Assembly (NCBI GenBank): GCA_036504095.1
Contig: DASXVS010000002.1
Location: forward strand, 118,184-182,183
Length of the DNA: 64,000 nucleotides
Source of the DNA: Armatimonadota bacterium
GTDB lineage: Bacteria > Armatimonadota > DTGP01 > JAKQQT01
Reading direction: 5' to 3'
Part shown: positions 60,800 through 60,951 of the stretch, one piece after another
Position numbering within the stretch: position 1 is the first letter of the stretch
How the letters are laid out: the number at the start of each line of letters is the position of its first letter
Made by a program: the position numbers and the translations under genes
Notes under the pieces: generated by a model
Databases searched by the model: none
What the model was told of the DNA's origin: nothing
Seen by the model: only the letters and a program-made list of their open reading frames with translations

Positions 60800-60951
60800 G
60801 AGGGCTGGGGGCTGAGGGCTGAGAGTAGAGCCAGACCTCCGGACAGGAGTTTCCCTGCCCGGAGGGCAGGTTTCCTGAACAGACGCCGGATTCATCCGGC
60901 TGGCCGGATGCCGGCCCTACCCCCTCAGCCCTACCCCCTCAGCCCTCAGCC
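60800..60951. repeat. Long imperfect hairpin made of GGGCTGAGG words, exactly between convergent stop codons
   Basis: Left arm GAGGGCTGGGGGCTGAGGGCTGAG, right arm CCCTACCCCCTCAGCCCTACCCCCTCAGCCCTCAGCC, internal mini-hairpins CCTGCC/GGCAGG and CCGGA/TCCGG. Confidence 0.65.

Follow-up and report, generated by a model that had tools for sequence, protein, structure and literature searches.

The hairpin between glcE and the beta-helix gene

We analysed a 64-kb stretch of DNA from an uncultured Armatimonadota bacterium (contig DASXVS010000002.1; the whole stretch is called the window below, and coordinates without a locus label are window positions), in which the 158-bp gap at 60795-60952 between two convergent open reading frames (ORFs) is occupied by an inverted repeat. 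The repeat is branched and constitutes a 157-base hairpin at 60799-60955. It is built of heptanucleotide simple-sequence repeats (SSRs): the outer stem is (GGGCTGA)n / (TCAGCCC)n, and the unit GGGCTGA reads TGAGGGC when phased on a stop codon. The locus consists of the following features, with the units of each arm written from the stop codon onwards.

59577-60794, + strand: gene for a glcE-like FAD-binding oxidoreductase (PF01565; NCBIfam GlcE-like model below cut-off), stop TGA at 60792-60794
60792-60828, + strand: left (5') arm with degenerate units, TGAGATT TGAGGGC TGGGGGC TGAGGGC TGAGAGT; 5' half of the outer stem
60836-60865, no strand assigned: inner hairpin A, 11 bp, CCTCCGGACAGG / CCTGCCCGGAGG (inverted repeat I7; minimum-free-energy (MFE) fold)
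60867-60877, no strand assigned: inner hairpin B, 4 bp, CAGG / CCTG (MFE fold)
60885-60900, no strand assigned: inner hairpin C, 6 bp, GCCGGA / TCCGGC, containing CCGGATTCA (MFE fold)
60902-60916, no strand assigned: inner hairpin D, 6 bp, GGCCGG / CCGGCC (I10 region, MFE fold)
60914-60955, - strand: right (3') arm, TGAAGGC TGAGGGC TGAGGGG GTAGGGC TGAGGGG GTAGGGC; 3' half of the outer stem, complement of the left arm
60953-63250, - strand: gene for a secreted beta-helix-type protein of 765 aa with a choice_anch_Q domain; stop (TCA on the + strand) at 60953-60955, inside the outer stem

Each of the two stop codons opens a degenerate heptamer unit, the first of its array, and the array runs in phase with it. 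The left arm contains a core array at 60799-60823 (TGAGGGC TGGGGGC TGAGGGC TGAG; period 7, 3.6 copies according to Tandem Repeats Finder, TRF). The right arm has a period of 7 over 60922-60955 (4.9 copies, TRF) and carries a tandem duplication of a 14-mer, GCCCTACCCCCTCA in two copies that are 100% identical (TRF period 14, 60914-60946). The two arrays, being on opposite strands, complement one another (84-100%, depending on the register; inverted repeats I1-I6). The perfect 14-mer duplication, present in one arm and missing from the other, points to recent slippage. The word CCGGATTCA in inner hairpin C occurs at five sites in the window (18167, 42759, 48704, 51262 and 60886) against 0.9 expected, a number reached by 1 of 100 shuffles; at least three copies lie within intergenic hairpins, and the word may be another recurrent building block.

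An earlier interpretation made from the letters alone (the sequence-only reading) had described a nested hairpin of recurrent words between the two convergent stops, with arms beginning within 6 nt of each stop. The inverted repeat is indeed seen there, and the distance is correct; it can be refined in that the stop codon itself opens the first degenerate unit. What that reading did not have is the organising principle: its words are units of tandem heptanucleotide repeats. It had also noted the same words at the 5' end of iorB and the 3' end of nfo, and these are real, the word GGGCTGAGG having seven copies in the window, including 21696/21703 and 29301, against 0.9 expected, with none of 100 shuffles reaching seven. 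A lone copy within coding sequence at 14767 is probably due to chance. The gene labels it used stand as well: the product of the first gene is GlcE-like by its PF01565 domain and is named glycolate oxidase FAD-binding subunit (GlcE) by JGI, with the NCBI name also supporting the label; the beta-helix ORF is 40% identical over its full length to a Beta_helix/NosD protein, its orthologue, at the related locus L086; iorB has a POR domain, and nfo matches TIGR00587.

We calculated the folding of the element on both strands. The + strand RNA had an MFE of -100.9 kcal/mol (z -6.5) and the - strand RNA one of -107.6 kcal/mol (z -5.8), and on neither strand was any of 200 dinucleotide shuffles as stable, which bears out the stable structure that the sequence-only reading had expected. 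Folded as DNA, the element reached -47.3 kcal/mol (z -5.2). The MFE structure consists of a 29-bp outer stem, pairing 60799-60828 with 60917-60955, around four inner hairpins. Per nucleotide, no other gap in the window is as stable as the glcE/beta-helix gap (-0.62 kcal/mol per nt, z -7.1). Such strong folding on both strands also speaks for an independent structured small-RNA gene lying between the coding genes. We consider this extremely improbable: the structure takes up precisely the space between the two stop codons; a promoter scan of the whole window gave no promoter-like site at the element; no homologue of the interior was found in the window or the fetched loci, and hence no covariation supports such a gene; and Rfam 15 at the gathering threshold gave no match in the window and none in 18 loci with GGGCTGA pairs (see below). 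When the region 60500-61250 was searched at E<=10, only generic long-hairpin models appeared, at no more than 25 bits compared to gathering scores of 40 to 168 bits, and a tRNA/tmRNA scan of the window found none.

The sequence-only reading had stated that no U-tract follows the hairpin and had proposed that any terminator here would be a non-canonical one. With an intrinsic terminator taken as a GC-rich stem-loop that has a U-tract (5 or more T in 8 nt) directly behind it, scans of 60000-62000 and of the whole window detected no hairpin-plus-T-run terminator at the element. Beyond the stem, the + strand reads CCGCCTCTGC and the - strand reads AAATCTCATT, both lacking a U-tract. Furthermore, the outer stem encloses about 90 nt with four sub-hairpins, whereas a single-stem terminator has a short loop of 3-8 nt. 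Across the window, hairpin-plus-T-run sites showed no excess over shuffles, although a small number of good sites was present, such as 46798-46772 on the - strand. As these canonical sites are not enriched, other 3'-end signals are to be expected in this genome.

Heptamer arrays in the window and in metagenome contigs

Tandem arrays of the same kind recur throughout the window, where TRF identified more than 20 arrays of period 7 or 14. In our own scan there were 13 period-7 runs compared to 0.6 in shuffles, and 8 runs of period 14, while the other periods from 4 to 13 gave 0-3 runs each against 0.3-0.7 expected. At one and the same threshold, the window held 6 period-7 runs and 1.27 Mb from 80 other genomes held 5, a roughly 24-fold difference in density. 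These genomes, retrieved through GlcE as relatives at 24-43% identity, belong to other phyla, include none that is heptamer-rich and serve only as a negative control. At least eight different units are present in the window: GGGCTGA at three loci, CGATGAA/TGATGAA at six, GTTCCGG in 13 copies at 35008-35097, and further GAGAATT, GGGTCCA, CCGGCAT/GCATTCA and CTGAATC. Along single arrays the unit changes gradually.

The period-7-specific excess, the density relative to other genomes, the number of units and their gradual shift, and the perfect 14-mer duplication in a single arm of the element all favour the main rival to a functional explanation. It holds that the element is a neutral or selfish by-product of a 7-nt slippage bias, possibly combined with template-switch inverted copying, and that this copy has no function of its own; arrays would build up where they are tolerated, in post-stop gaps, variable linkers and N- or C-terminal tails. 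We regard this account as possible, if rather doubtful, in view of the relatives' gaps and the pair polarity described below.

The arrays are not placed at random with respect to genes. A majority of those in the window adjoin or overlap a stop codon, and five of the six CGATGAA-type arrays adjoin one in sense. Besides the arms of the element, two further GGGCTGA arrays are present.

21695-21722, + strand: second GGGCTGA array, four units, read in frame on the - strand in the N-terminal extension (34-40 aa) of IorB
29281-29310, - strand: third GGGCTGA-type array, forming the last codons (...RGLRGKG) and the stop of nfo (deoxyribonuclease IV)

The iorB gene occupies 21121-21783 on the - strand; its ATG start and the iorA stop share bases within ATGA, and residue 41 is where the POR domain begins. 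Its N-terminal part, 21695-21783, contains two arrays in frame, one GGATCCA-type and one of four CAGCCCT units; alternatively, iorB may start at a non-canonical start codon after the arrays.

Inverted pairs of heptamer arrays bracket whole gaps at 21042-21122, 34020-34091 and 35007-35306. The first is a GAGAATT/TGAGATA hairpin that fills the iorB-paaK gap of an apparent iorA-iorB-paaK-ACT operon, and its first unit opens with the iorB stop TGA. In the third, 13 copies of GTTCCGG/GAGTTCC begin 1 nt after the stop of an M48 peptidase gene and a complementary array, CGGAACC/CGAAACT, ends at the ATG (35307) of a radical-SAM/PDZ gene; two further GC-rich hairpins lie inside this 300-nt gap, and the total MFE is -144 kcal/mol. 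Another inverted pair, at 26432-26507 (CCGGCAT/GCATTCA ... TGAATGC/AGGATGC), is located in frame within the ORF 25780-27834 on the + strand, in the hypervariable linker of a bifunctional rhamnulose-1-phosphate aldolase/SDR protein. At this linker, the loci L210 and L211 (82-87% identity) carry heptamer-periodic DNA with other units (CCTGAAT, GAATCCG), and L210 also a 30-nt tandem duplication. A simple insertion at 26432-26507 was ruled out, as the linker is present in homologues and the right arm encodes a segment conserved among close relatives. In-frame arrays in the IorB extension, the C-terminal tail of nfo and this linker, where L210 and L211 have other units, again favour the by-product account.

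Three further places in the window were recorded. The convergent gap 29182-29288 contains an 11-bp hairpin directly after the stop of an M48 peptidase gene. The convergent gap between the ORFs 50490-51224 (+) and 51484-54051 (-) holds, at 51225-51483, a nested hairpin of about 220 nt (MFE -121 kcal/mol, z -7.6) whose long outer arms lack heptamer periodicity, and a CGATGAA-type array (51232-51262) immediately precedes the hairpin. Lastly, the segment 54800-56400 has a GC content of 0.52-0.56 compared to 0.64 for the window, and its ORFs, as called by JGI for L081, have no Pfam match; at its edge lies a CGATGAA array (54805-54832), and the segment may be acquired DNA.

GGGCTGA arrays are also found outside this genome. 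Exact (GGGCTGA)3 occurs in at least 120 metagenome contigs, and among the matches listed, inverted pairs within 400 nt were present at 18 loci (20 flagged by the script), always in the order GGGCTGA...TCAGCCC and never in reverse. Twelve of the loci (L094, L105, L127, L128, L130, L133, L152, L154, L156, L163, L169 and L171) share an interior of AAGATCAAGAGC, a GC-rich stem and then GCTTTT. We read this A-rich / GC-rich stem / T-run arrangement as a putative terminator-like core whose stem would be lengthened by the heptamer arrays. L127 belongs to a Rhodanobacteraceae (Rudaea-like) gammaproteobacterium, as judged by its DnaG. In L154, at 1750-1910, the GGGCTGA hairpin is itself nested in a second palindromic repeat, GTAGGGTGGGCCTTGGCCCACC, on both flanks. 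We then related 104 arrays of (GGGCTGA)>=3 on GC-rich contigs to long ORFs with a high GC content at third codon positions. An ORF stop lay at or just before the array in sense for 41 of the 104 and in antisense for 9, and the stop-to-array distances peaked at exactly 0 and inside the array.

Arrays of a G3N4 unit could alternatively act as G-quadruplexes (G4), with an i-motif on the C-rich strand, and thereby affect transcription, translation or replication without any hairpin. A role of this kind was proposed for the Xanthomonas GGGAATC repeats, and the Xanthomonas and Nostoc repeats form G4 in vitro and occupy the same positions relative to ORFs (PMC4692102). Consistent with this, a regular-expression search identified a canonical motif in the - strand arm at 60920-60945 (five tracts of G3 or longer with 2-4 nt loops), and 5 of the 11 G4 motifs in the window fall inside heptamer arrays. 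However, the + strand arm has three G-tracts only, the 11 motifs do not exceed the 11.6 found in shuffles, and a majority of the arrays here (CGATGAA, GAGAATT, GCATTCA, GTTCCGG) cannot form G4. Moreover, pairing with the complementary arm, over 29 bp, competes for the G-tracts. Thus, G4 formation is an unlikely basis for the element.

Orthologous gaps in relatives and a possible role at mRNA 3' ends

We collected related loci through GlcE and through the aldolase and compared the gap next to glcE. The window corresponds to contig Ga0376481_000140 of JGI metagenome 3300035523, and NCBI attributes the identical proteins to an Armatimonadota metagenome-assembled genome. Apart from the window, the locus itself was represented only by the assemblies L081 and L082, which match it at 100% identity and probably derive from the sample that yielded the window. 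The orthologous glcE/beta-helix gap of L086 is 57 bp long and forms a perfect 22-bp stem (-46 kcal/mol, z -10.4), and that of L085, 42 bp long, forms a 13-bp stem overlapping the stop codon (z -4.5). None of the orthologous-gap sequences is related to the window element. Thus, the sequence of the element is lineage-specific, while a hairpin at this position recurs. Elsewhere in L086, the convergent gap 19262-19380 is a near-perfect palindrome from stop to stop with TCAGCAA / GCTGAAT heptamer arms (-101 kcal/mol, z -16.5). L086, a second Armatimonadota metagenome-assembled genome (MAG) from the same sample, has two such heptamer-armed palindromes, 19259-19383 and 2780-2925, with a common inner junction, TCAGCCCGAAGG...CC(T)TCGGGCTGA; in the former, TAG and CTA, the two stop codons, are base-paired within the stem, and the latter is in a divergent gap.

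The absence of the element from the relatives' orthologous gap bears on two alternatives. It fits the by-product account, as does the wide variation in heptamer density among related genomes. It also fits the insertion between the two genes of a MITE- or REP-like mobile element with heptamer terminal inverted repeats, which would account for the terminal inverted arms, for GGGCTGA arms at three window loci and in at least 120 metagenome contigs with a uniform polarity when paired, and for a family with the shared core AAGATCAAGAGC in other bacteria. However, the interior 60824-60913 was single-copy when compared by blastn to the window and all fetched loci, only the heptamer words recurring, and a multicopy MITE core was therefore set aside. 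Furthermore, there is no target-site duplication, as the flanks (...AAATGAGATT before the left arm, CCGCC... after the right) contain no direct repeat; the many units at different loci do not suit a single element family; and stop-phased arms fit growth in place better than insertion. No transposase was seen among those window ORFs, a part of the total, that were scanned against Pfam and NCBIfam, and no dedicated RAYT or transposase search was made. We hold a mobile origin to be quite improbable. Searches of plasmid databases with the element and with the L105 element returned nothing informative, and a literature search for the literal repeat sequence gave no match.

Next, gaps of the window and six related loci were pooled by gene orientation. 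Convergent gaps (n=16) had a median z of -2.75, with 62% at z <= -2.5; divergent gaps (n=16) had a median of -0.55 and 25%, and tandem gaps (n=52) a median of -0.85 and 23%. Convergent gaps were significantly more structured than divergent ones (Mann-Whitney p=0.015). The unrelated hairpins in the orthologous gap, together with this richness of convergent gaps in structure, argue against a mere by-product and suggest that structure itself is selected there. The same two observations lend indirect support to the idea, put forward by the sequence-only reading, of a non-canonical terminator, which we find plausible. Two further points weigh against the by-product account. The polarity of GGGCTGA pairs is uniform, and bacteria do not normally maintain long near-perfect palindromes stably, so that their persistence requires either selection or constant regeneration.

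We favour, with a probability of about one half, a reading in which the arrays grew from the stop codons by slippage and the resulting stop-to-stop hairpin serves both transcripts as a 3'-end structure. Two GGGCTGA arrays would have grown from the two stop codons, each in sense to its own convergent gene, probably by replication slippage, with intrastrand template switching as a further possibility. The complementary arms would then clamp the unique 90-nt interior with its four small GC-rich hairpins. Transcription of either gene into the gap would yield an RNA that folds, at about -100 kcal/mol, a few nucleotides past the stop codon. The main role of this structure would be that of a barrier to 3'-to-5' exonucleases, defining and stabilising both mRNA 3' ends in the manner of the Escherichia coli REP hairpins. 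As a secondary role, it may retard or halt RNA polymerase in the absence of a U-tract, perhaps aided by a factor such as Rho, NusA or NusG, and thereby limit convergent read-through and antisense RNA. The structure, its heptamer make-up, the stop phasing, the genome-wide repeat class and the relatives' hairpins at the same position are observed; transcription of the element, 3'-end formation or termination there, and an origin by slippage or template switching are inferred. In favour of the reading are the extreme stability on both strands, the hairpins in the orthologous gap and in the second convergent gap of L086, the excess of structure in convergent gaps, the lack of enrichment of canonical sites, the terminator-like cores of the twelve metagenome loci and the sense orientation of arrays at gene 3' ends. 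In related Xanthomonas repeats, transcripts start or stop more often than in controls (PMC4692102).

Several observations weigh against this reading. Like hairpins occur where termination would do harm or serve no purpose, inside an apparent operon (iorB-paaK), in frame in the aldolase/SDR gene and in divergent gaps (L086 2677-2939 and L083 5683-5824), and the presence of the same architecture in other gaps, an operon and coding sequence argues against every copy being a terminator. At the glcE position itself, the closest relative, L083, has a different gene beside glcE and a gap of 10 bp, and in L089 glcE and the neighbouring beta-helix gene overlap; thus, a hairpin is not required there. 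In addition, the arms of the element are imperfectly matched, and the recent 14-nt duplication in the right arm bulges from the stem, indicating that perfect pairing is not being maintained. Finally, hairpins lacking a U-tract are not known to terminate bacterial RNA polymerase in vitro, and work on mycobacterial polymerase reportedly found the U-tract to be required.

A more far-reaching proposal is that TGA-bearing, stop-phased arrays are an actively maintained 'gene-end module' of this Armatimonadota lineage and, convergently, of some Proteobacteria. Arrays seeded at the stop would place a stop codon in all three frames within 21 nt, and would offer expandable stem material, from which a barrier against transcription or RNA decay could form that works in both directions and can be tuned. 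A factor specific to the lineage, for example a property of the polymerase or an RNA- or DNA-binding protein reading 7-nt units, would make or use the arrays. If true, this would link the period-7 bias, the uniform pair polarity and the CTGA/TGA core shared with heptamers of Beggiatoa, cyanobacteria and Geobacter. We think it improbable. Stops in all three frames were rejected as a universal rule, as the GTTCCGG arrays are stop-free and the polarity is reversed in the L086 hairpins, where the TCAG arm comes first.

Relation to known repeats and terminators

Heptanucleotide repeats are the most over-represented class of long SSRs in many bacteria and have remained without an established function for nearly twenty years. 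The locus and its neighbours extend this class to an uncultured phylum and do so with a clean anatomy of stop-phased arrays, stop-to-stop hairpins and unrelated palindromes in the relatives' orthologous gap, which makes the hypothesis of mRNA 3' ends formed without a U-tract directly testable by 3'-end mapping. Heptamer arrays also blur gene boundaries, since they extend ORFs, supply stops and add in-frame peptides, and they break assemblies; the annotation of such MAGs should allow for them.

The closest known counterparts are the G-rich heptamers GGGAATC of Xanthomonas and GGGGA(C/T)T of Nostoc, which are over-represented in intergenic DNA, rarer than expected between divergent ORFs, present in 70-75 convergent inverted pairs in each Xanthomonas genome and able to fold as G4 in vitro, with no function established (Rehm et al., 2015; PMC4692102). 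Like these, both arms of the element consist of tandem 7-nt G3N4 units with at least two head-to-tail (TRF), and period 7 is over-represented, as measured on 64 kb of this genome. Arrays are positioned at ORF stops in both arms, in the majority of window arrays and in the 41 of 104 metagenome arrays, and the paired arrays are convergent (G-rich unit on the + strand, then on the - strand) and capable of forming a stem-loop. As regards G4 potential, only the - strand arm reaches the four G3 tracts needed, with five, and the + strand arm has three. The differences are that the host is an armatimonadote, that the unit GGGCTGA carries TGA, that the genome uses many units, most of which are not G-rich, that the arms are stop-phased, and that four hairpins are clustered in a 90-nt interior.

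As summarised in PMC4679880, Mrazek et al. (2007) described an excess of long heptanucleotide SSRs, mainly intergenic, and proposed polymerase slippage as its source. The excess specific to period 7 is common to the window, those SSRs and the cyanobacterial STRR heptamers, whereas the latter two are, as far as that summary describes them, direct arrays and the arrays here form stop-to-stop hairpins. The STRR units (for example CCCCAGT) seem unrelated to the units found here. Two other heptamer systems are the TAACTGA direct repeats of marine Beggiatoaceae, cyanobacteria and Bacteroidetes (MacGregor, 2015; PMC4679880) and the MTYCTGA / GGACCGG elements of Geobacter metallireducens (PMC2700814), for both of which a role in translation has been proposed (PMC4679880, PMC2700814). 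They resemble the present arrays in lying in intergenic DNA beside start or stop codons, and TAACTGA and MTYCTGA have the CTGA/TGA core in common with GGGCTGA, GCTGAAT, CCTGACT and CTGAATC. In contrast to the arrays here, they are essentially direct (one inverted set in 170 in 'Maribeggiatoa') and mostly lie upstream of start codons.

Enterobacterial REP/BIME sequences are, like the element and its sister copies, extragenic palindromes without a U-tract at gene 3' ends and in operons. REP hairpins protect the upstream mRNA from 3' exonucleases, and this is the working model that we have adopted for the element. REPs differ in being a conserved dispersed family of about 35 nt mobilised by RAYT, whereas the element has a unique interior and SSR arms. 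Rickettsia palindromic elements (RPEs) are hairpin-forming repeats that are tolerated in frame in protein-coding genes, a likeness that concerns the sister copies read within the aldolase/SDR linker and at the N-terminus of IorB; however, RPEs form a conserved family of 100-150 bp, and the sister copies are local heptamer arrays whose units differ from relative to relative. With intrinsic terminators, including bidirectional ones, the element shares a GC-rich stem located directly after convergent stops, but it has neither a U-tract nor an A-tract, and a 29-bp stem with a 90-nt branched interior takes the place of the 3-8 nt loop. Together, these comparisons identify the element as a member of the described heptamer-repeat class, in a new phylum and with a new unit, and not as a new kind of element.

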